Assembly (NCBI GenBank): GCA_902782145.1 | Contig: CACZLZ010000008.1 | Span: forward strand, 23,327 to 87,326 | Origin: an uncultured Aeromonadales bacterium | Lineage (GTDB): Bacteria > Pseudomonadota > Gammaproteobacteria > Enterobacterales > Succinivibrionaceae | DNA: 64,000 nt | Reading direction: 5' to 3' | Shown: piece after piece, positions 25,861 through 34,862 of the stretch | How the letters are laid out: each line of letters begins with the position of its first letter | Position numbering within the stretch: position 1 is the stretch's first letter | Notes under the pieces: generated by a model | The model's input: the letters and a program-made list of their open reading frames with translations, nothing else | Told to the model about the DNA's origin: nothing | Databases searched by the model: none | Made by a program: the position numbers and the translations under genes

Positions 25861-28431
25861 ATGGCAGTCAACGTTCGCAAGCTATTCAAGTCACCCAGAA
25901 AAAAGCAGGCCGGGGATGATCCCCTGCTCCCTGAGAAGCCTGGTGCCGCCCCTGCCGGGGACACTGCCCCATCCCGGAAAGAAGCCTCTGCCGGAAAGGC
26001 GGACAAATCTCCCCTGCCCGGCAGTCAGACCGGATCCGGGACCCCTGGAGACGGCAGCGCACGCCCTGCCGCCACTCCTGCATCATCCAAAGAGACTTCC
26101 CCGGACGGCAGCAGCCGCCTGAAGGCCACATCCGGCGGCAGCAGTTCTCCCGGCTCCAGGAATGCACCCGCCGCCAAAACTACCGCAGCAGGAAAGAGGG
26201 GCCGCTCCCCAGATCCGGCCGCATCTGCCGCCTCCATCAGAGCCGGCACCGGCACTTCTTCCATCAGATCCGGTGACCTGGGCAGCCGAGCCGCCCGATC
26301 CGGTGACAGATCTTCCCCTTCCAGCAGTTCCGGCGGCAGCACGAACCTTTCCGGCAAGATCGGCAGCAATGCCGGATCCGCTGGCAAGGGAAAGAAAGAA
26401 CGATCCCTTAAAGATCGGATCTACGGCATCATCACCTTCTCCGACATATCCATTGTCAACGTGGTGCACATGGGCTTCTTGCTGCTCCTGTTCATCATCT
26501 GCGGCATCGCCGGCATCACCTATTCCAGCCTGAGCAGCCTCAGCAGCGCCTTCAACGTGGTTTCAGATCACGCCACCCCCATGGCCATGATCGCCAAATC
26601 CATGGAGTCCGATCTGCTGCTCATCCACGACGACGTGAACCAGATCCTCATGGAGCGGGTCCCGGACCGCATAGCCGTCCATGAGAAGGAGCTGTCCTCC
26701 TTCCGGGAAAGCTTCCAGAAGTCCCTGGAGGATTTCCAGGAGATCACCCGGGATGAGCCCAAGCTCCAGGAACTCATTGCCGGGGTACAGGGCATGACCG
26801 ACGCCTACCTGTCGGAGATCAGCAAGATCCCCGCCCTCCGGGGGGAACTCCTGAAGAGAACCGCCGAGGTCAACAAGCAGAAGGCCGCCTTCGGCGGTCT
26901 GGTGCGCTTCTTCAACAACGAGGAGACCGCCTTCTTCGCCAAGATTGACGATGATTTCCTCCTGGACAGCTACCGTTGCATGAAAGCCGCCCAGAGCACC
27001 ATGGAGAGCAACACCACCACCGCCCTGGACACGGATATCCCCGAGAAGATCCAGGAGTACATCAAGACCAACCAGAGCTACCTGAAGGAGTTCAACCTGA
27101 ATCTCAATGATCTCAAAGCCGAGATCAAGGATCTGGAAAACAACCTGGGCACCTACATCTCCAGTTTCATCTATGACACCACCAATCCCAACGGTCTGAT
27201 CTACAACCACCTGAAGCTGGCCGAGGAGACCATGGAGCTCCAGCGTGCCGCCGACGGGGCCAAGGAGAACATCATCCGGATCCGGGAGCACATCCACACA
27301 GTCCAGAAAATGGCCAACGAGGCCATCAACCAGAGCAACCGCACGGCCAACAGCATCTTTGACCGCAGCCGGATAACCCTGCTGGTGTCCGTGGCCCTGT
27401 CCATTGTGGTGGCACTGTTCGTGGCCTTCCTGGTGGGCAGATCCATCCGGGTGCCCCTGGGGCGCATCATCAGCGCCATCTCCGCCATGTCCGACGGCGT
27501 CTACGTGGGCCGCCTGGGCTACCGTGCCAACAACGAGTTTGGCCTGCTGACCCGCAGGATCAAGGCCTTGCGGCTGCAGTTTGCCGACGTGCTCCGCCAG
27601 GTGTCCGAGGGATCCAACAAGGTCAAGAATGCGGCTGAAGCCAACACCGATGCCGCCACCAACACCGCCAACGGCATCCAGTCCCAGCAGCGCATGACCC
27701 GGGACATGGTGAACGCCATCGAGGAGATGCGGGCCTCCGGCGCCGAAATGGCCGACTCCGCCAACGAGACCCGGAAGATAGTCCTCCAGGCCGGGGAGGC
27801 AGTGACCAACGGCAGCGATGTCATCAACCGCAACATTGAGTCCACCAGGAAGCTGGCCGAGCAGATCGCCTCCACCGGCGAGCGGGTCAACCAGGTGAGT
27901 GCCATGAGCCAGAACATCAACTCGGTGATCCAGGTTATCCGCGGGGTAGCGGATCAGACCAACCTGCTGGCCCTGAACGCCGCCATTGAGGCTGCCCGGG
28001 CCGGTGAACACGGCCGGGGCTTTGCCGTGGTGGCAGACGAGGTCCGCAGTCTGGCAAGCAAGACCGCCGCCGCCACCAACCAGATCCGGGAGGTTATCGA
28101 GGCGCTGCAGGACTCCGTGGGCAAGTCAGTGGACTCCATGCAGGAATGCCGCAATGAGATGGAAAAGTCCATCAGCCAGACCTCCGACGTCCACCATGCC
28201 ATTCAGAAGATCCAGACTCACCTCAACGTCATCACCGAATATTCCGACAAGATCGTGGATGCCGCCAACAACCAGGCCAGCAGCACCGACGCCGTGGCCA
28301 TGAACGTGAAGGACATTGCCTCCATTTCCGAGAGCAACGTGGAGGAGATCAACAAGGTGAAGGAAGCCTGCCTGGGTCTGAACGAACTGGCCAGATCCCA
28401 AACCGAGTGGGTCAGCAAGTTCACCTTCTGA
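25861..28431 (+). CDS. methyl-accepting chemotaxis protein with about 190-aa low-complexity N-terminal extension
   Basis: Signalling hairpin QTNLLALNAAIEAARAGEHGRGFAVVADEVRSLASKTA. Two TM segments flank a helical sensor region, followed by a HAMP-like segment. Confidence 0.9.
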   Translation: MAVNVRKLFKSPRKKQAGDDPLLPEKPGAAPAGDTAPSRKEASAGKADKSPLPGSQTGSGTPGDGSARPAATPASSKETSPDGSSRLKATSGGSSSPGSRNAPAAKTTAAGKRGRSPDPAASAASIRAGTGTSSIRSGDLGSRAARSGDRSSPSSSSGGSTNLSGKIGSNAGSAGKGKKERSLKDRIYGIITFSDISIVNVVHMGFLLLLFIICGIAGITYSSLSSLSSAFNVVSDHATPMAMIAKSMESDLLLIHDDVNQILMERVPDRIAVHEKELSSFRESFQKSLEDFQEITRDEPKLQELIAGVQGMTDAYLSEISKIPALRGELLKRTAEVNKQKAAFGGLVRFFNNEETAFFAKIDDDFLLDSYRCMKAAQSTMESNTTTALDTDIPEKIQEYIKTNQSYLKEFNLNLNDLKAEIKDLENNLGTYISSFIYDTTNPNGLIYNHLKLAEETMELQRAADGAKENIIRIREHIHTVQKMANEAINQSNRTANSIFDRSRITLLVSVALSIVVALFVAFLVGRSIRVPLGRIISAISAMSDGVYVGRLGYRANNEFGLLTRRIKALRLQFADVLRQVSEGSNKVKNAAEANTDAATNTANGIQSQQRMTRDMVNAIEEMRASGAEMADSANETRKIVLQAGEAVTNGSDVINRNIESTRKLAEQIASTGERVNQVSAMSQNINSVIQVIRGVADQTNLLALNAAIEAARAGEHGRGFAVVADEVRSLASKTAAATNQIREVIEALQDSVGKSVDSMQECRNEMEKSISQTSDVHHAIQKIQTHLNVITEYSDKIVDAANNQASSTDAVAMNVKDIASISESNVEEINKVKEACLGLNELARSQTEWVSKFTF

Positions 28432-28704
28432 GAACTGCTCCGTGCCCTAGGCACGTGGGGCTCCGCTCAGGCTCGGAAACTCCGCTCAGACCTCTGTTCC
28501 TTCGTGTGATACGGCAGGATCGAAGCCCTGGGCGGTCACTGCCACTGGAAGGTAACTGATCCGGCATCCTCTCCCCAGGAGCTTCTTCAGGCAGTGCTTT
28601 TATTCTCACCCGCTAACTTGCGCCCGCCTCATATCTCCGCAATGCAGGAGGGAGGCCAAAACGAGACCTCTCCCCGCAGATCACCCGCACCTGATCCTGC
28701 TCAT

Positions 28705-29107
28705 CACGCAAAAACCTCATTTTCAGCCGCCAACAGCCCGGCAGTGACTGCACATACCAGCCTTATGTCCTGCAATATCTGCATTTTTTGCCACTCAGAA
28801 CGTTGCAATAACTGCACTTTTTAACGCTCACGGCACTGCAAAATCTGCACTTTTTGGCTGCAGTGCCCAGAATACCGCACTGATCCTGACCAGATCCAGC
28901 ACAACTCCATGCCTTCAGGAACTCCGCAAGCCCCATTTCCCCTTTCTCCTGAACAGAAAAGCTGGCAACAGCAGTTTAGTCAAATTCGCAAAACCTGCAC
29001 TTTTTGCTGCACAGCAACCTGCAAAACCACCATTTTCAGCCCCATTGGATCATGCAAAACCTGCACTTTTCGCTCCTTTCAGCTATGCAAAAACCGCACC
29101 TTCAGAC
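28705..29107. repeat. array of at least 8 copies of a palindromic 21-nt motif TGCAAAAyCTGCACTTTTTGC, phased at 33 bp
   Basis: Copies begin at 28708, 28771, 28804, 28837, 28987, 29020, 29053 and 29086. The arms GCAAAA / TTTTGC are inverted. Eroded copies lie between the two blocks. Confidence 0.85.
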
Positions 29108-29185
29108 AAAAAGCCGATCCAGCCTGAGTTTTTTCTGTTCTAGTGTGTGATAATCCATGCAGTCATCTGCTCCCGGAGGGACACA

Positions 29186-30553
29186 TTGATATTCAAAAGA
29201 AAGGTCTATGACCAACTCCTGGAATGGAAGGAGAAATTCTCCCGAAGATATGCTGTCATGCTGGAAGGCCCCAGACGGGTTGGCAAGTCAACCATTGCCG
29301 AAGAATTCGCCCGGAGACATTTCCGCTCATACATCAGGATCGACTTTGCCGACATAACCCCGGAAAGGATTAAAGCCATTTTCAGCAGTCTGGCGACGCC
29401 GGATCTGCTGTTCCTCCAACTCCAGGCTGACACCGGGATCCAACTGTATCCAGGGGAGTCAGTTATCATATTTGACGAGATCCAGCGGGCACCGCCTGTC
29501 CGTCAGGCCATCAAATACCTGGTGGCTGACGGCAGGTACAGTTACATTGAGACTGGCTCCCTGATAAGCATCCGCCAAAACATCAGGAACATAGTGATCC
29601 CGTCAGAAGAATATTTCATCAGCGTCAACCCCCTTGATTTCGAGGAATTCCTCCTGGCCACCGGCAACCAGGCCTACGGCATTCTCCGGGAGCTTTACCA
29701 CCGCAACAAGCCCGTTGGCAGTCAGACAAACACCAAGCTCATGCGGGATCTGCGCCTTTATATGGCTGTCGGCGGCATGCCCCAGGCCGTAGAGTCCTAC
29801 ATTGGCAAGAACAACTTCGTTGAAATTGACCGGATCAAACGATCAATACTTGACCTGTACGAGCAGGATTTCTACCGCATCGACAAATCCGGGATCCTGG
29901 CGAAAATGTTCACCTCCATCCCCAGCCAGCTTGGCCATAACAAGAAGAGATTCGTGCTGTCCCAGGCCTCCGGGAAACGCACCACAGCAAAAGATCTGGA
30001 AAGGTTTTCCGAACTGGTGGACTCCAAAACCGTCCAGGTCTCCTACGACACAGCCGATCCCGGAATTGCCCTGGGCTCCACGGCAAGACCAGACTCCTAC
30101 AAAGTCTATCTCAGTGACACCGGCCTTTTCACCTCCCTGCTTTTCAGCTCAGCCGATCAGACCAGCAGCCAGATCTATAGCAAACTCCTGAGCGACAAAC
30201 TGAGCGCGAACCTCGGTTACCTCTATGAGAACGCCGCCGCACAGATGATCACTGCCAGCGGCAACAAGCTGTTCCATCACACATGGAAGAAGGAAGGCAG
30301 CACCCATCACCACGAAATCGATTTTCTGATCCAAGCCGGGACCAAGATAGTGCCCATCGAGATCAAATCCTCCAGCATCAACAGCCACAGTTCCATCACA
30401 GCTTTCAGCCTCAAATACCCCGGCAGGATCCTGAGCCAGTACCTGTTCTCCCAAAAAGATGTGAGCCACAGGGAGACACTCCTGTGCAAACCACTGTGGA
30501 TGCTGCCCTTTGTCCTGGAGGAACTGGGACAGGCAGAAATAACTGGCCGGTAA
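29186..30553 (+). CDS. AAA+ ATPase with DUF4143-type C-terminal domain (COG1373-like)
   Basis: Walker A LEGPRRVGKST and Walker B VIIFDEIQ. The C-terminal EIDFLI...IPIEIKSS is a restriction-endonuclease-like motif typical of this family. Start was chosen at TTG 29186, 5 nt after GGAGGG. Confidence 0.75.
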   Translation: MIFKRKVYDQLLEWKEKFSRRYAVMLEGPRRVGKSTIAEEFARRHFRSYIRIDFADITPERIKAIFSSLATPDLLFLQLQADTGIQLYPGESVIIFDEIQRAPPVRQAIKYLVADGRYSYIETGSLISIRQNIRNIVIPSEEYFISVNPLDFEEFLLATGNQAYGILRELYHRNKPVGSQTNTKLMRDLRLYMAVGGMPQAVESYIGKNNFVEIDRIKRSILDLYEQDFYRIDKSGILAKMFTSIPSQLGHNKKRFVLSQASGKRTTAKDLERFSELVDSKTVQVSYDTADPGIALGSTARPDSYKVYLSDTGLFTSLLFSSADQTSSQIYSKLLSDKLSANLGYLYENAAAQMITASGNKLFHHTWKKEGSTHHHEIDFLIQAGTKIVPIEIKSSSINSHSSITAFSLKYPGRILSQYLFSQKDVSHRETLLCKPLWMLPFVLEELGQAEITGR

Positions 30554-30631
30554 AACCCGGATAGAAGAACCGCGGCAGCGGGACACCCCGGAATTTGAAT
30601 ATTTTGTCAGAAGCAGACTGGGTTGCTGAAC

Positions 30632-31924
30632 ATGGCACAGATAGAAGGTTTGAGAATTCAGAACTACAAGGCGCTGAAGGATATAACACTGGGAAAGTTA
30701 TGGAACACTCAGGACAGGCCCCTGACCCGGCTGACCGCGGTGATTGGCCATAACGGCACCGGGAAAAGCTCACTCTTTGATGCCTTTGGTTTTATCGCCG
30801 ACTGCCTGAAAATGGGAGTGGAAGAGGCCTGTGACAACCGGGGAGGCTTTGAAACGATTTACTCCAAAGGGGTGGATTTGGCGGAGGGGATGACTTTTAC
30901 GGTTTCTTACCGGGAGAGTTCTGATGCTGATGACAGCCCCATAACGTATGAGTTTGCCATTAAAGCCGCTGCCGACAGATGGCCTTATGTGGCTTCAGAA
31001 AGGCTGCGGCAAAAAAGGAAGGGATCTACTGAGGGCGACTGTCCTCAGTCATTTATGATCATCAATAACGGCACCGGAGTGGTCTGGAAAGGCGGATCTG
31101 AAGGCAGGCTGAACAATGAAGATGAGGGTTCTGTGTTAAACCTCATTAACCAAATCGAAGCGGGACAAAAGACAGAAGAGACAAATGAAACCGAAGTTGT
31201 GAGGCTGGAAGACAACCGGCACCTTGCGGTTACTACCCTCGGCTCATTAAAACAGCATCCAAGGATCACCGAATTCAGAAAATTTATTGAAAGCTGGTAT
31301 TTAAGTTATTTTACCCCCGACTCTGCCCGTTCGCTGCCGGCTACCGGCTGTCAGAAGCACCTTGACAGTCATGGCGGCAATCTCGCAAATGTGGTTCAGT
31401 ACATGCAAAGGGAGCACGGGAACCAATTTAAGAAGGTGCTAAGCAGGATCTCCGCCAAAATTCCCGGCATAGAAAAGATAGACACCCGGGTAACACCAGA
31501 CGGCAGGCTGCTGCTTGAATTTTATGCAGAGGGATTTGCGGAACCCTTCTTTGCCCAGCAGATGTCGGACGGCACACTGAAATACTTCACCTATCTTCTG
31601 CTTCTGGAAGATCCTGAGCCTCATTCACTGGTCTGCATTGAGGAGCCTGAGAACGGTCTCTACCCCCAGCTGCTGGAAGAACTGGGCCAAGAATTCCGCA
31701 ATTATGCATCAGCCAGAACAGCAGACTCCCAGGTGTTTATCACGACCCATCAGCCCTTTTTGCTTAACGCATTCAATACTGATGAGGTGTGGATCCTGGA
31801 AAAGCAGCCGGACGGCTTTGCCCGCATTTCCCGTGCCAGCAATAATGAACTGGCAAGACAAATGGCAGATGCAGGACTTCCCCTGGGGGAACTGTGGTAC
31901 AGCGATTATCTCAGCGGGAAATGA
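30632..31924 (+). CDS. ABC/SMC-type AAA ATPase (AAA_21/AAA_15-like), partner of the downstream Toprim-like gene
   Basis: IQNYKALKD...VIGHNGTGKSSLFDAF (Walker A), MSDGTLKYFTYLLLL (signature-like), LVCIEEPENGLYPQLL (Walker B) and FITTHQPFLL (H-loop). Confidence 0.8.
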   Translation: MAQIEGLRIQNYKALKDITLGKLWNTQDRPLTRLTAVIGHNGTGKSSLFDAFGFIADCLKMGVEEACDNRGGFETIYSKGVDLAEGMTFTVSYRESSDADDSPITYEFAIKAAADRWPYVASERLRQKRKGSTEGDCPQSFMIINNGTGVVWKGGSEGRLNNEDEGSVLNLINQIEAGQKTEETNETEVVRLEDNRHLAVTTLGSLKQHPRITEFRKFIESWYLSYFTPDSARSLPATGCQKHLDSHGGNLANVVQYMQREHGNQFKKVLSRISAKIPGIEKIDTRVTPDGRLLLEFYAEGFAEPFFAQQMSDGTLKYFTYLLLLEDPEPHSLVCIEEPENGLYPQLLEELGQEFRNYASARTADSQVFITTHQPFLLNAFNTDEVWILEKQPDGFARISRASNNELARQMADAGLPLGELWYSDYLSGK

Positions 31925-32879
31925 ATGCACTTTGAAATCCTGGTTGAGGATCTTTCGGGCAAGATAATGCTTGCCAGCCTGATCCCCATGATCATAGGAG
32001 CTGATCCTGCCAATACCTTCAGGATCATCCATTACCGGGGATGCGGATCCCTGCCATCAGATCTGAAAGTGAGCCAGGCCGCCGACAAACGGGCACTGCT
32101 GAATCAGCTGCCAAGGCTGCTCATTGGCTACAGCCGGGCATTTCAGAATGCGGTCAGTGACAATGCGGTCATTGTCGTATGCGATCTGGACACCCGGGAC
32201 AAAGACACCTTTCTGGCCAGGTTAAATCAGATGCGGGATGAGGCGGCGGCAGCGACGTCCGTTCCCCTGACCGTCCGCTTCTGCCTGGCCATTGAAGAAG
32301 GAGAAGCCTGGCTTCTGGGCGACTGGGAGGCGGTAAAACAGGCTCTTTGCAAAAACAAGTTGGAATTATCCAGGATTATATATTCTAAATATCAAAAACA
32401 TATAGCCATGAATATTTATTTGCTGGAGATCGGATTTAGGTATGTGCCATCATGTCGTCATGCTAACACATTGATTTCTGGGGGCTTTTGACTGTGTGTG
32501 TGCTTACGCAGCTTCTAAAACTGAAGGCTCATTTCGTGTCATAGCCCATGGGGCTGGCCAACATCGTTCCAACTGGAATTTGCAAAGACCCGTAAAACAG
32601 GCATATCCCCAGGCCAAAGCGAGTGTTTTCCGTAAATACCAAAACGATGCCGTCTGCGGCACCTGGGAAATGCTGGCTGACATGATCTGCCCGGGTGGTT
32701 CAGCGAAACTGAAAGCCGAGGGACATAGTTTACTCGGCCAGGCAAAATGCGAATGGGCTGAAAAGATCAGCCCACTCATGGATATTTCCCGCAACAAGTC
32801 CCCAAGTTTCAACGTCTTCAAAAGCGCGCTGGAAAGTCTCCTGCACCTGCCCCATCATGAGCCGGAACATATACCCTGA
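31925..32879 (+). pseudogene. Toprim-like DUF4276-type gene split by a MITE insertion
   Basis: The two ORFs 31925..32491 and 32496..32879 join in frame (...EAVKQ|AYPQAKASV...) once 32341..32599 is removed. Conserved EILVED, CDLDTRD and AIEEGEAWLLGD motifs are present. The ATG directly follows the TGA of the ATPase gene. Confidence 0.7.
32341..32591. mobile_element. 251-bp MITE (non-autonomous element with ISL3-like termini)
   Basis: Left end is GGCTCTTTGCAAAAACAAGTTGGAA. The reverse complement of the right end is GGGTCTTTGCAAATTCCAGTTGGAA, about 21/25 identical. It is flanked by a perfect 8-bp direct repeat GTAAAACA (32333-32340 and 32592-32599). The interior is AT-rich with no ORF. Confidence 0.75.
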
Positions 32880-32969
32880 AACATCCCGGCCGGTGGGCTG
32901 ACATCGAAGCCTGCGCCGGGCTGCCACCAGTAGCCGGCAAAGAGCCATCCAATCTGACAGCCAGCCTGC

Positions 32970-34862
32970 TCAGTCCCGGACCACCGGCGCCCCGGCATCA
33001 GCCAGGATATCCTGACCGTCAGCAGTTTCCCCGCTGCCCTGGGGGACATAGGAGATCTCGCTGTCAATGGGCGGGACGACCGCTGCCGGGGTCACCGCAA
33101 CCTCCGCATTGTCCCGGGCGATCTTGGCACAGGCCTGGGCATCCGCATTCATCCGGGTGATCCCGGAGGCCTTCCGGCTGTCAGCACCGGATCCTGCCAC
33201 ATCGGCAATGACACTGAAGCTGTCCAGGAAACTTCTGAGATCTCCCAGGAAGGCATTGGCCGTGGCCGGATCCCCGTGCATCTCCATCACAAACCTGGCG
33301 CCATCAAGACGGGCAAAGCCCCGGCCCACAAAGGTGGCAGAGATGATCCGGGAGATGATCAGCCACTGGTGGAAACTGGACCGCACCACGGTGTTCTCAG
33401 AACGGTGGGAGTCATACACGCTGCTGCCCACAGTCACTGTGGAGGTGGTGTATGTGCCGTTGTTCTTGTAGTAGATCATCAGGGAGGAGAACTTCAGCTC
33501 GCTGTAGAACAGTCCGGCAGCATCCCACAGCATCTTGGCGGAGATCAGCAACAGCACCAGAGTCAGGGCGGTCCCTGCCAGGGACTGGCCGCTGATGGAG
33601 TCAAAGGCGCCGTTCCAGTTGTGGGTGAAGCCCTGGGCGAAGGCGGCCAGTTTGGAGTAGGTAAGCACCGTGACAATGCCCGCGGCAAGTCCCAGGAGGA
33701 ACTTCACACAGACAAAGGCGGGATGCTGGCCGGAGGGGATGCACTCGGGCTGGGTCTCCTGCACCGTGTAGCCGAAGAACTCGCCCTTGGACTCGGAGGA
33801 ATGGGACTGCAGCCCCGGCACCGACCGGCTGTAGACCCGGTTGGGGGTCTCCCGGAAACGCCGGCCCGCCATGGCCTTGTTGTCAATGGCAGAAAACAGC
33901 TCGTCTGGGTGGACCGACTCCTGCCAGTCCTCGATGCGCTCGGTGACCTCAGTCTTGAGATCATACTCCAGGGTCTTGCACCAGGTCAGGAACAGAATGG
34001 GCAGGGTGATCAGCAGGGGGATCAGGGCAAAGGCCCAGAACCAGCTGATCCAGGGGAAGGCGTTGAACACGTCCACACACTCCCGGAACACCCCGTCAGC
34101 CGGAACGGAGACCAGGGTGAACAGGCCGCCCAGGAAGGCGGGCACCGCCAGGGCATAGGCGATGTTGAGGGTGAAGTAGCGGATCCGGAGATTGTCAGGG
34201 GCGGCCACCCGGTTGCGATCGGCCACAAAGGCCCGGCGCCACAGGAACACCATCCGGGCACCGAAAAACAGTGCGCACAGGTTCACAGCCAGCACCGGGC
34301 TCCCCTGCCCCACCAGGGATGTGTCCACCAGGAACACCAGGGCACCGTACCCGCACAGGAGCACCAGGGTGTTGATGATGGCCGAGACGCACCCCTGGAG
34401 GATGTTGCGGTAAGGGGGCGGCAGGAAGAACATGCTGCGGAACAGGGTGTAGCACAGGCTCTCCACCCAGCACCGGGGCTCTACAAAGGTCTTGTTCATG
34501 CGGGAGTTGAGCATCTCAGCCAGGTCGGCTGCCTTGTAGGTGATGTGCAGCTGGTTCTCCCCGGGGTTCTCCATATCGGTGGCCAGGGACTTGGGATCAT
34601 GGCGTCCCACTGTCAGGGAGAGGCACTTGAGCAGGCCGGCGCCGGAGAAGACAAGACCGTTCAGGGCGATGACCACGCCGAAAAACAGTGAGATCCAGGC
34701 TGCGGGATTCTGTCCGGACTTCACCAGTGACGATATGTCCGTGAGCATTCCCAGTCCCAGGTACAGGGTGTAAAGACCCGCCGCCGCCTGGATCAGCCCC
34801 AGCACCAGCATGGGATTCCGGATCCGCTGGCTCTTGGATCCCAGATCATTTTGTCCGGCCAT
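32970..34862 (-). CDS. polytopic membrane protein, unknown family (630 aa)
   Basis: Long ORF with host-like composition. About 8 hydrophobic segments in two clusters are separated by a soluble region of about 90 aa. The C-terminal soluble domain is about 150 aa. No motif recognised. Confidence 0.65.
   Translation of the reverse strand: MAGQNDLGSKSQRIRNPMLVLGLIQAAAGLYTLYLGLGMLTDISSLVKSGQNPAAWISLFFGVVIALNGLVFSGAGLLKCLSLTVGRHDPKSLATDMENPGENQLHITYKAADLAEMLNSRMNKTFVEPRCWVESLCYTLFRSMFFLPPPYRNILQGCVSAIINTLVLLCGYGALVFLVDTSLVGQGSPVLAVNLCALFFGARMVFLWRRAFVADRNRVAAPDNLRIRYFTLNIAYALAVPAFLGGLFTLVSVPADGVFRECVDVFNAFPWISWFWAFALIPLLITLPILFLTWCKTLEYDLKTEVTERIEDWQESVHPDELFSAIDNKAMAGRRFRETPNRVYSRSVPGLQSHSSESKGEFFGYTVQETQPECIPSGQHPAFVCVKFLLGLAAGIVTVLTYSKLAAFAQGFTHNWNGAFDSISGQSLAGTALTLVLLLISAKMLWDAAGLFYSELKFSSLMIYYKNNGTYTTSTVTVGSSVYDSHRSENTVVRSSFHQWLIISRIISATFVGRGFARLDGARFVMEMHGDPATANAFLGDLRSFLDSFSVIADVAGSGADSRKASGITRMNADAQACAKIARDNAEVAVTPAAVVPPIDSEISYVPQGSGETADGQDILADAGAPVVRD

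Follow-up and report, generated by a model that had tools for sequence, protein, structure and literature searches.

The 64,000-nt stretch of DNA analysed here (hereafter, the window) comes from an uncultured Aeromonadales bacterium of the family Succinivibrionaceae (GCA_902782145.1, contig CACZLZ010000008.1, positions 23,327 to 87,326 of the forward strand) and contains an array of short, phased, palindromic repeats. The family assignment agrees with the names of near-identical PykF proteins. The array lies in the 754-bp intergenic region (28432-29185) between a gene for a methyl-accepting chemotaxis protein (MCP; 25861..28431, + strand), which forms the conserved left flank of the locus, and a gene for an ATPase with a nuclease-like domain (29186..30553, + strand). 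The ATPase consists of 455 aa and is 100% identical to the database protein P0001; its true start is the TTG codon at 29186, with GGAGGG upstream. Pfam searches identified AAA_14 and DUF4143 (PD-(D/E)xK) domains, and the PADLOC profile of the defence candidate PDC-S01 matched residues 1-443 of the protein with an E value of 2.2e-89, which makes the ATPase a member of the PDC-S01 family. As described below, arrays with a similar period are found upstream of many homologous ATPase genes, and the window carries an exceptionally extended form, a lineage-specific expansion, of this family-wide repeat array.

We identified an imperfect palindrome of 20 bp (consensus TGCAAAACCTGCACTTTTTGC) that occurs eight times on the + strand, in two blocks at 28707-29107. 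A degenerate 17-nt core of this motif (GCAAWAHCNSCAYYTTY, at most one mismatch) was detected at 28708, 28772, 28805, 28838, 28988, 29021, 29054 and 29087. These eight matches (0.13 expected) all read on the + strand and are the only ones in the 64 kb. In a partly circular test, a position weight matrix (PWM) derived from the copies assigned them 22-35 bits, whereas no other site in the window exceeded 12.7 bits. The start-to-start spacings of the eight copies are 64, 33, 33, 150, 33, 33 and 33 nt, and the lag spectrum of the window has its highest value at 33 and the second highest at 66. All copies are located within a few hundred bp upstream of the PDC-S01 gene, and none was found downstream of this gene or on the opposite strand. 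Tandem Repeats Finder reported nothing for the array, which is explained by conservation of the 21-nt cores but not of the spacers.

An earlier note on this DNA, made by a model from the sequence, had described the array as at least eight copies of a 21-nt motif with inverted-repeat arms, placed between the MCP stop codon and the DUF4143-type ATPase gene and absent from the rest of the 64 kb. The location and, by the core-pattern scan, the confinement to the array were confirmed, and the count of eight stands for the core. However, only four copies (28771, 28837, 28987 and 29053; all on the + strand, with zero expected) match the 21-mer with three or fewer mismatches, the other four being degenerate, and the palindrome is longer than described, with 8 of 10 pairs across GCAAAACCTGCACTTTTTGC. 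The exact 33-bp spacing holds within the blocks, with the exception of copy 1, which is 64 and not 66 nt away from copy 2. Similarly, the suggestion that the sites occupy one face of the DNA is roughly correct within a block, but 33 bp correspond to about 3.14 helical turns, and the two blocks are out of phase because the step between them is 150 nt, that is, 4 x 33 + 18. The general interpretation of the array as a DNA site fits the data, given that phased short palindromic sites are of the type that a protein oligomer would bind.

The first block starts with the degenerate copy 1 (CGCAAAAACCTCATTTTCAGCC, 28707..28728, PWM score 22 bits), which contains one extra A and is off register relative to copy 2, and continues with copy 2 (TGCAATATCTGCATTTTTTGCC, 28771..28792), copy 3 (TGCAATAACTGCACTTTTTAAC, 28804..28825) and copy 4 (TGCAAAATCTGCACTTTTTGGC, 28837..28858), all on the + strand. 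Copy 3 holds a TAA triplet (28822-28824) that is specific to the window and is replaced by TAC in all other strains. The second block, on the same strand, consists of copy 5 (CGCAAAACCTGCACTTTTTGCT, 28987..29008), which is the best palindrome and also scores 10.8 bits on the - strand, copy 6 (TGCAAAACCACCATTTTCAGCC, 29020..29041), recognized by both the core pattern and the PWM, copy 7 (TGCAAAACCTGCACTTTTCGCT, 29053..29074) and copy 8 (TGCAAAAACCGCACCTTCAGAC, 29086..29107), 99 nt upstream of the ATPase start codon. The gap between the blocks (28859..28986), across which the register shifts by 18 nt, contains what by eye look like eroded 33-bp units, as the earlier note had also suggested; such in-register units, seen in the gap at approximately 28870 (GAATACCGCACTGATCC) and 28906 (CATGCCTTCAGGA) and between copies 1 and 2 at approximately 28738, fall below the PWM threshold and are only suggestive.

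Between copy 8 and the ATPase gene, visual inspection pointed to a possible extended -10 element (TGTGATAAT, 29146..29154, + strand) and a possible relic of a promoter-proximal repeat (TGCAGTCATCTGCTCC, 29157..29172, + strand). By eye, the relic candidate is identical at 12 of 16 positions to TGTAAAAAACTGCTCC, the repeat of the closest homologues, and it is fused directly to the ribosome-binding site GGAGGG (29175-29180). Of a promoter-proximal repeat, only this possible relic at 29157 is seen in the window.

We then compared the regions upstream of homologous ATPase genes in 22 loci (26-77% protein identity), a convenience sample from exact-protein look-ups, IMG/VR and tblastn searches against plasmids, using a simple home-made lag statistic (14-nt windows with at least 11 matches, within 260 bp upstream of the ATPase); start codons might be mis-annotated in some of these records. 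A lag of 32, 33, 34 or 66 was the strongest or the second strongest in 20 of the 22 loci, which come from Bacillota, Bacteroidota, Spirochaetota, Pseudomonadota, Actinomycetota, Fusobacteriota and Chlamydiota. By comparison, among 1673 control windows taken from the homologue loci (including their other intergenic regions), the window and the sister loci, 64 contained some repeat, and none contained a repeat at lag 33, 34 or 66-68. The homologue loci typically carry two to four direct repeats with a 32-34 bp period, each a motif of 15-22 nt that combines A-tracts and T-tracts and is often palindromic, in arrays of 70-140 bp that are located in promoter regions, and the proximal repeat often overlaps the -35 box. 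Every motif copy in the 15 loci checked is upstream of the gene and on one strand. The ATPase is the sole gene common to all array loci sampled, and the gene together with its array occurs as a single-gene unit in many unrelated chromosomal contexts.

The motifs themselves differ among the loci. The ATPases with 67-69% identity to P0001, from two unassigned metagenome contigs (L062 and L064; such labels denote individual loci), a member of the Lachnospiraceae (L032) and Treponema (L026), are preceded by three to four copies of TTGTAAAAAACTGCTCC at 34 bp, the final copy of which provides TTGTAA, 17 nt ahead of a -10 box. At 61% identity, an unassigned isolate (L048) and Acetitomaculum ruminis (L049) carry TTGAATAAATGACATTTTTTGC / TGAAATAATGACATTT at 33 bp, followed, at decreasing identity, by Agathobacter rectalis (L042, 48%) with four copies of AAAAATGCGATTTTGTGG, Segatella hominis (L043, 47%) with three copies of AAATTTGCGTATTTTC and then a Bacteroidota -7 box, two IMG/VR contigs (L036 and L038, 43%) with three units, and Segatella copri (L044, 39%) with three copies of GTCAAAACGTGAGAAATAG. 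Units of the GAAAAGTGT type were found in Vescimonas (L045), Prevotella (L056) and Collinsella (L057). The Glaesserella locus (L046) has three units, the last of which reads TTGAAA, 17 nt, TAAAAT; in Parabacteroides (L047), the units are 66 bp apart, and in Fusobacterium (L054) and Criblamydia (L058), the period is 32 bp.

Between-clade relationships of the motifs were judged by eye. TTGTAAAAAACTGCTCC aligns with the window motif at TG(Y)AAAA..CTGC, and the window version TGCAAAACCTGCAC(TTTTTGC) resembles both TTGTAAAAAACTGCTCC of the 67-69% relatives and TTGAATAAATGACATTTTTTGC of the 61% relative, which connects the window array to those of its relatives. One motif is common to the Lachnospiraceae locus L032 and the Treponema locus L026, three different motifs are present in three Lachnospiraceae loci, and GAAAAGTGT is common to the Vescimonas, Prevotella and Collinsella loci, from three phyla, with ATPases that are 35-41% identical to each other. 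In the sequences compared here, the motif is associated with the ATPase clade, not with the host. An A4-5-N-TG half-site, also noticed by eye, recurs across the family.

In a metagenome scan that relied on the motif only and required two full copies 33 bp apart, we recovered this species (L021) and a few other loci, including L020 and L024, where three copies of CTGCAAAATCCCCATTTTTA at 33 bp are located directly upstream of an ATPase with 44% identity to P0001 over the full length. The scan of genome contigs, which required the motif and the start of the next copy 33 bp on, yielded 10 single, chance-like matches and no second core copy at any locus. An additional contig, L025, contains at 590-720 four copies of GCAAAATCCCCATTTTTA at 33 bp, the motif of L020 and L024, followed by an inverted GGGGATTT; no ATPase is visible there within the 1.9 kb of sequence examined.

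An AlphaFold2 model of the ATPase (predicted local distance difference test score, pLDDT, 80; predicted template modelling score, pTM, 0.83) consists of an AAA+ core, a lid, a segment of three helices and a beta-hairpin (residues 237-310), with a predicted recognition helix at about residues 268-279, and a PD-(D/E)xK-like domain, in which D379, E392 and K394 are invariant in the homologue alignment. A Foldseek search with this model retrieved generic AAA+ proteins, including the DNA binders Cdc6, ORC, MuB and RuvB, as well as the nuclease-domain proteins VC1899 and Cdn1; a sequence search of the Protein Data Bank with the ATPase gave no match.

Taken together, we interpret the array as a cis element of the downstream PDC-S01 gene, namely, a set of self-bound autoregulatory operators that has expanded and is decaying in this lineage, a reading to which we assign a probability of roughly 0.6. 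The most likely binder of the repeats is the ATPase itself, through the winged-helix-like domain predicted in the model; both this assignment and the direction of regulation are what we infer from the data at hand. Under this scenario, each repeat would be bound by the ATPase via that domain, and the phased sites would promote cooperative head-to-tail assembly of protomers, with about one protomer for every 33-bp unit. How strongly the ATPase gene is transcribed would then depend on whether its proximal site is occupied, probably through autorepression that would keep the level of this potentially toxic nuclease-ATPase fixed. In the Succinivibrionaceae lineage, the array would have arrived with a low-GC island and would have grown by tandem duplication to the eight recognizable units (about 14 counting the eroded ones), and it would now be partly decaying. 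More tentatively, and with odds somewhat below even, PDC-S01 ATPases in general might be sequence-specific DNA-binding oligomers that place one protomer per ~33 bp on a triple-repeat 'landing pad' at their own promoter. If so, the conserved period would reflect how the active AAA+ assembly is arranged on DNA and the clade-specific motif the recognition code of each protein, providing a direct handle on how PDC-S01 is kept silent and which DNA features it recognizes.

Several observations weigh against self-bound operators. On the protein side, the AAA+ matches of the Foldseek search are generic, with low TM-scores, and the winged-helix assignment comes from the secondary-structure pattern only. 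Among the homologues, the loci from Ruminococcus albus (L055) and Vibrio (L059) have no array upstream of the ATPase, and in L044, L056 and L042, the repeats follow the likely promoter and precede the start codon; a single model of repeats overlapping the -35 box thus does not fit all loci. In the window, a strict sigma-70 scan found no promoter in the array region or in any unit, and the last good copy is far from the start codon; thus, the proximal architecture of the relatives is disturbed here. Furthermore, in an alignment of eight sequences from the same species (contigs 98-100% identical), the array varies at 28 of 471 positions (5.9%) compared with 9 of 456 third-codon positions in the ATPase gene and is no more conserved within the species than neutral sites; variable positions number 5 of 136 in the motif cores and 23 of 335 in the spacers (raw counts). 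Much of the expanded array looks close to neutral. By contrast with the third-codon positions, the first and second positions of the ATPase gene carry one substitution each (1/1/9 by codon position; 11 of 1368 positions in total), so that this gene is under purifying selection. Copies 2, 4 and 7 are invariant across all eight sequences, and the copy number is constant among those aligned. In the part of the intergenic region outside the repeats, strains L015, L018 and L019 lack 19 bp (window 28461-28479) that are flanked by two copies of CTCCGCTCAG, an indel that resembles a deletion by slippage.

Two other explanations are each considered unlikely. The repeats could be tandemly duplicated promoter modules, every unit corresponding to a -35 to -10 region that RNA polymerase recognizes, which would provide several starts or an UP-like enhancer and would need no dedicated regulator: the -35 to -10 span of a sigma-70 promoter, about 29 bp, is near the unit length of 33 bp, units in several loci start with TTGTAA, TTGAAA or TTGAAT, one unit in each of L048 and L045 holds -35-like and -10-like hexamers, and each of the units in the Prevotella locus L056 holds a TAnnTTTG box. 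However, in most loci (L032, L062, L020 and L046), a usable -10 box is present in the last unit only, the strict scan found no promoter in any window unit, and the control windows, which also cover further intergenic regions of these loci, contain no repeat at the lag of the array. Moreover, the 32-34 bp period is maintained across phyla with differing promoters (sigma-70 vs Bacteroidota -33/-7) while the motif changes with the ATPase clade. To a similarly low degree of probability, the extra copies in this genome might be a functionless minisatellite, that is, a normal three-unit element that was expanded by slippage after horizontal transfer, with most of its eight or more units now neutral and decaying. 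The two to four units of the relatives, against eight plus eroded ones in the window, the 18-nt phase difference between the blocks and a within-species diversity above that of third-codon positions of flanking genes all point in this direction, and this explanation is compatible with self-bound operators as the best account of the family as a whole. The invariance of copies 2, 4 and 7 and the lack of copy-number variation among the aligned strain sequences argue against it.

The remaining alternatives are far less probable. The earlier note had compared the array to plasmid centromeres and iterons, and a maintenance site of a plasmid or an integrative and conjugative element, either replication-origin iterons or a partition centromere, would indeed account for phased direct repeats that each contain an inverted repeat. 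In addition, the neighbouring gene encodes an AAA+ protein with, in the model, a winged-helix-like domain and Cdc6/ORC-like fold neighbours, and some homologues are plasmid-borne. This analogy is nevertheless not supported, and we regard such a role as very improbable: the island includes PDC-S01 and HEC-01 only, with no rep, par, relaxase or integrase gene in Pfam and PADLOC searches, the locus is a chromosomal, variable slot with syntenic context in every strain, the array accompanies one ATPase family whose gene-plus-array unit occurs singly in unrelated chromosomal contexts, and blastn of the intergenic region against plasmid and phage collections gave no match. We noticed no AT-rich unwinding element or DnaA boxes beside the array, although no dedicated scan was made. 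Plasmid iterons were rejected because the neighbours (MCP, PDC-S01, HEC-01A and HEC-01B) include no initiator gene and chromosomal synteny is conserved, and a partition centromere (parC / sopC / parS) because there is no parA/parB-type gene in the island. Hardly more plausible is a role of the repeats as binding sites at the ends of a small element that mobilizes the ATPase gene, comparable to the multiple sites bound by transposase at the ends of Tn7 or Mu. The gene is transferred horizontally, given that it is found singly in many contexts across phyla; the fold neighbours include MuB, and TnsA also has a PD-(D/E)xK nuclease fold. However, no copy in inverted orientation or downstream of the gene was found in any of the 15 loci tested, and there is no transposase. 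A candidate flanking direct repeat, TCTGTTC-N4-GTGTGATA, brackets the array at 28493-28511 and 29134-29152, 641 bp apart; it is unexpected for this exact pattern, but its local alignment score of 18 is no better than that of shuffled controls (mean 15, max 23), and because the similarity does not extend and the score is inside the shuffle range, it is probably a chance match.

The earlier note had alternatively read the array as coding sequence for a repeat peptide rich in Cys and Thr (one CxxCTF unit per 11 aa), genuine or decayed, with all copies in a single reading frame and a TAA at 28825. In fact, seven of the eight copies share the frame, copy 1 being out of frame, and the in-frame stop is at 28822-28824. 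The 177-codon frame (28594..29127, + strand) is open in seven of the eight strain variants, which have TAC instead of TAA, it was called as a gene in one assembly, and the + strand shows C>G and A>T skew like that of + strand genes. The strain alignment speaks against coding, with substitutions distributed as 8/10/7 over codon positions 1/2/3 in this frame compared with 1/1/9 in the ATPase gene; at 98-100% identity, the contigs are too similar for covariation to be assessed. The open reading frame (ORF) has no Pfam match, and a search of 1.84 billion representative proteins returned the same locus and two low-complexity matches only. The arrays of relatives are short and in promoter regions, and those of the closest clade cannot encode an in-frame peptide repeat because their period is 34 bp. 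A coding function, whether of a genuine small protein or of a gene that decayed recently, thus has a minimal probability, and we judge the ORF to be a non-coding by-product of the stop-free 33-bp repeat: a stop-free unit with a length that is a multiple of three would yield such a long Cys-rich frame.

Other classes of elements were considered and rejected. A CRISPR (clustered regularly interspaced short palindromic repeats) array, with repeats of at least 23 nt, does not match the 21-nt motif, 12-nt spacers and degenerate copies seen here; no Cas family matched the island ORFs tested, a window-wide cas scan not having been made. A structured RNA was discarded given the lack of an Rfam hit in the window and a fold z-score of +0.87. 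The earlier note had named a dispersed element of the REP/BIME (repetitive extragenic palindromic/bacterial interspersed mosaic element) type as a finding that would overturn its reading; in the 64 kb, the only part of this genome available, every copy belongs to the array, and the scans placed arrays of this motif variant at the locus of this species only.

The array lies at the edge of a compositionally distinct island. The GC content drops from ~59% to 44-49% at ~28700, where the array starts, and the segment at ~28.7-32.9 kb has 44-53% GC (51% for the island) vs ~60% in the surroundings. In a sister species, in which the MCP gene shows 72% nucleotide identity, the homology ends exactly at the MCP stop codon, and the slot between the MCP gene and a gene for a 630-aa protein, syntenic with window 28432-32969, holds a RelA_SpoT gene and neither the array nor the ATPase. 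Given the GC drop at the array and the absence of both array and ATPase from the sister species, the array is part of an imported island rather than of the core genome, and because the sister species carries RelA_SpoT there, the slot behaves like a hot spot at which the cargo varies and may be of the defence or toxin type. The RelA_SpoT-domain gene was seen in L050-L053, with 338 aa in L052 (5500-6516) and split in the others. The 630-aa protein of the right flank (window 32970-34862, - strand) is conserved in the sister species and has no Pfam, NCBIfam or PADLOC match.

Downstream of the PDC-S01 gene, PADLOC identified a second candidate defence system of the island, which consists of HEC-01A (AAA_21 ATPase; 30632..31924, + strand) and HEC-01B (DUF4276; 31925..32879, + strand). 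HEC-01B is intact (231 aa) in strain L014 and is split in the window into ORFs 31925-32491 and 32496-32879 by a 259-bp insertion (32333-32602) resembling a miniature inverted-repeat transposable element, with terminal inverted repeats that are 25 nt long and imperfect (84% complementary) and a direct duplication of 11 bp, GTAAAACAGGC. In L018 (7520-9127), an insertion sequence (DDE_Tnp_1 transposase, 535 aa) is located between the ATPase and HEC-01A, and L015 (2636-4623) has a truncated HEC-01A of 390 aa together with a split HEC-01B. Despite this differing damage to the island, the PDC-S01 gene is intact in all strains.

In published surveys, PDC-S01 is described as an ATPase fused to a PD-(D/E)xK domain that is very abundant and experimentally unvalidated; it is the fourth commonest defence candidate across prokaryotes and the top single defence locus in rumen genomes (PMC12988326, PMC13356809). 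We found no description of an upstream repeat array of PDC-S01/DUF4143/COG1373/AAA_14 genes in the open-access literature. The kind of element, phased, iteron-like operator repeats beside the gene of the presumed binder, is known; the link with the PDC-S01 family, the ~33 bp period across phyla and the clade-specific motifs appear to be new. A cross-phylum cis element with a fixed period and a clade-dependent motif points to the first concrete, cheaply testable hypothesis for PDC-S01, namely, DNA binding and self-regulation. In addition, the array could aid annotation by marking the true promoter and start of PDC-S01 genes, and the long ORFs over such arrays are a warning against gene calls there.

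Among known systems, the array is reminiscent of the iterons of pSC101, P1, R6K and F and of F sopC, in which direct repeats of ~20 nt, which may contain a short inverted repeat, are spaced by whole helical turns; in the case of iterons, as here, the repeats adjoin the gene whose product presumably binds them, and the proximal site, as in many of the homologue loci, overlaps the promoter of that gene. The differences are that the present locus is chromosomal, has no Rep/Par protein and no origin features that we noticed, that the period is about three turns and not two, and that the neighbour, the putative binder, is an AAA+ ATPase with a nuclease-like domain. Archaeal Orc1/Cdc6 and its origin recognition boxes (ORBs) offer another parallel, in that partly palindromic boxes form an array beside the gene of an AAA+ protein with a winged-helix-like domain. 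A single monomer occupies ~30 bp in the Orc1-ORB structures, a footprint that, by analogy, would fit one protomer per 33-bp unit, and Cdc6 and ORC are among the Foldseek neighbours of the ATPase, albeit weak ones (TM-score ~0.25). Unlike those boxes, the repeats described here are all direct and strictly phased, with no unwinding element noticed (no scan was made), and the ATPase, which is grouped with the defence candidates, has a PD-(D/E)xK domain at its C terminus. Within defence, the single-gene candidate PDC-S01 of PADLOC, to which the ATPase is a full-length match, has been described at the protein level only, and a regulatory parallel is with BrxR/CapW, where a palindromic operator at the promoter of defence genes presumably holds a toxic effector low until needed. 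In that case, a separate regulator with winged helix-turn-helix and WYL domains acts on a single inverted repeat, whereas here no separate regulator is conserved, at least three phased direct repeats are present, and the effector itself is the proposed binder.

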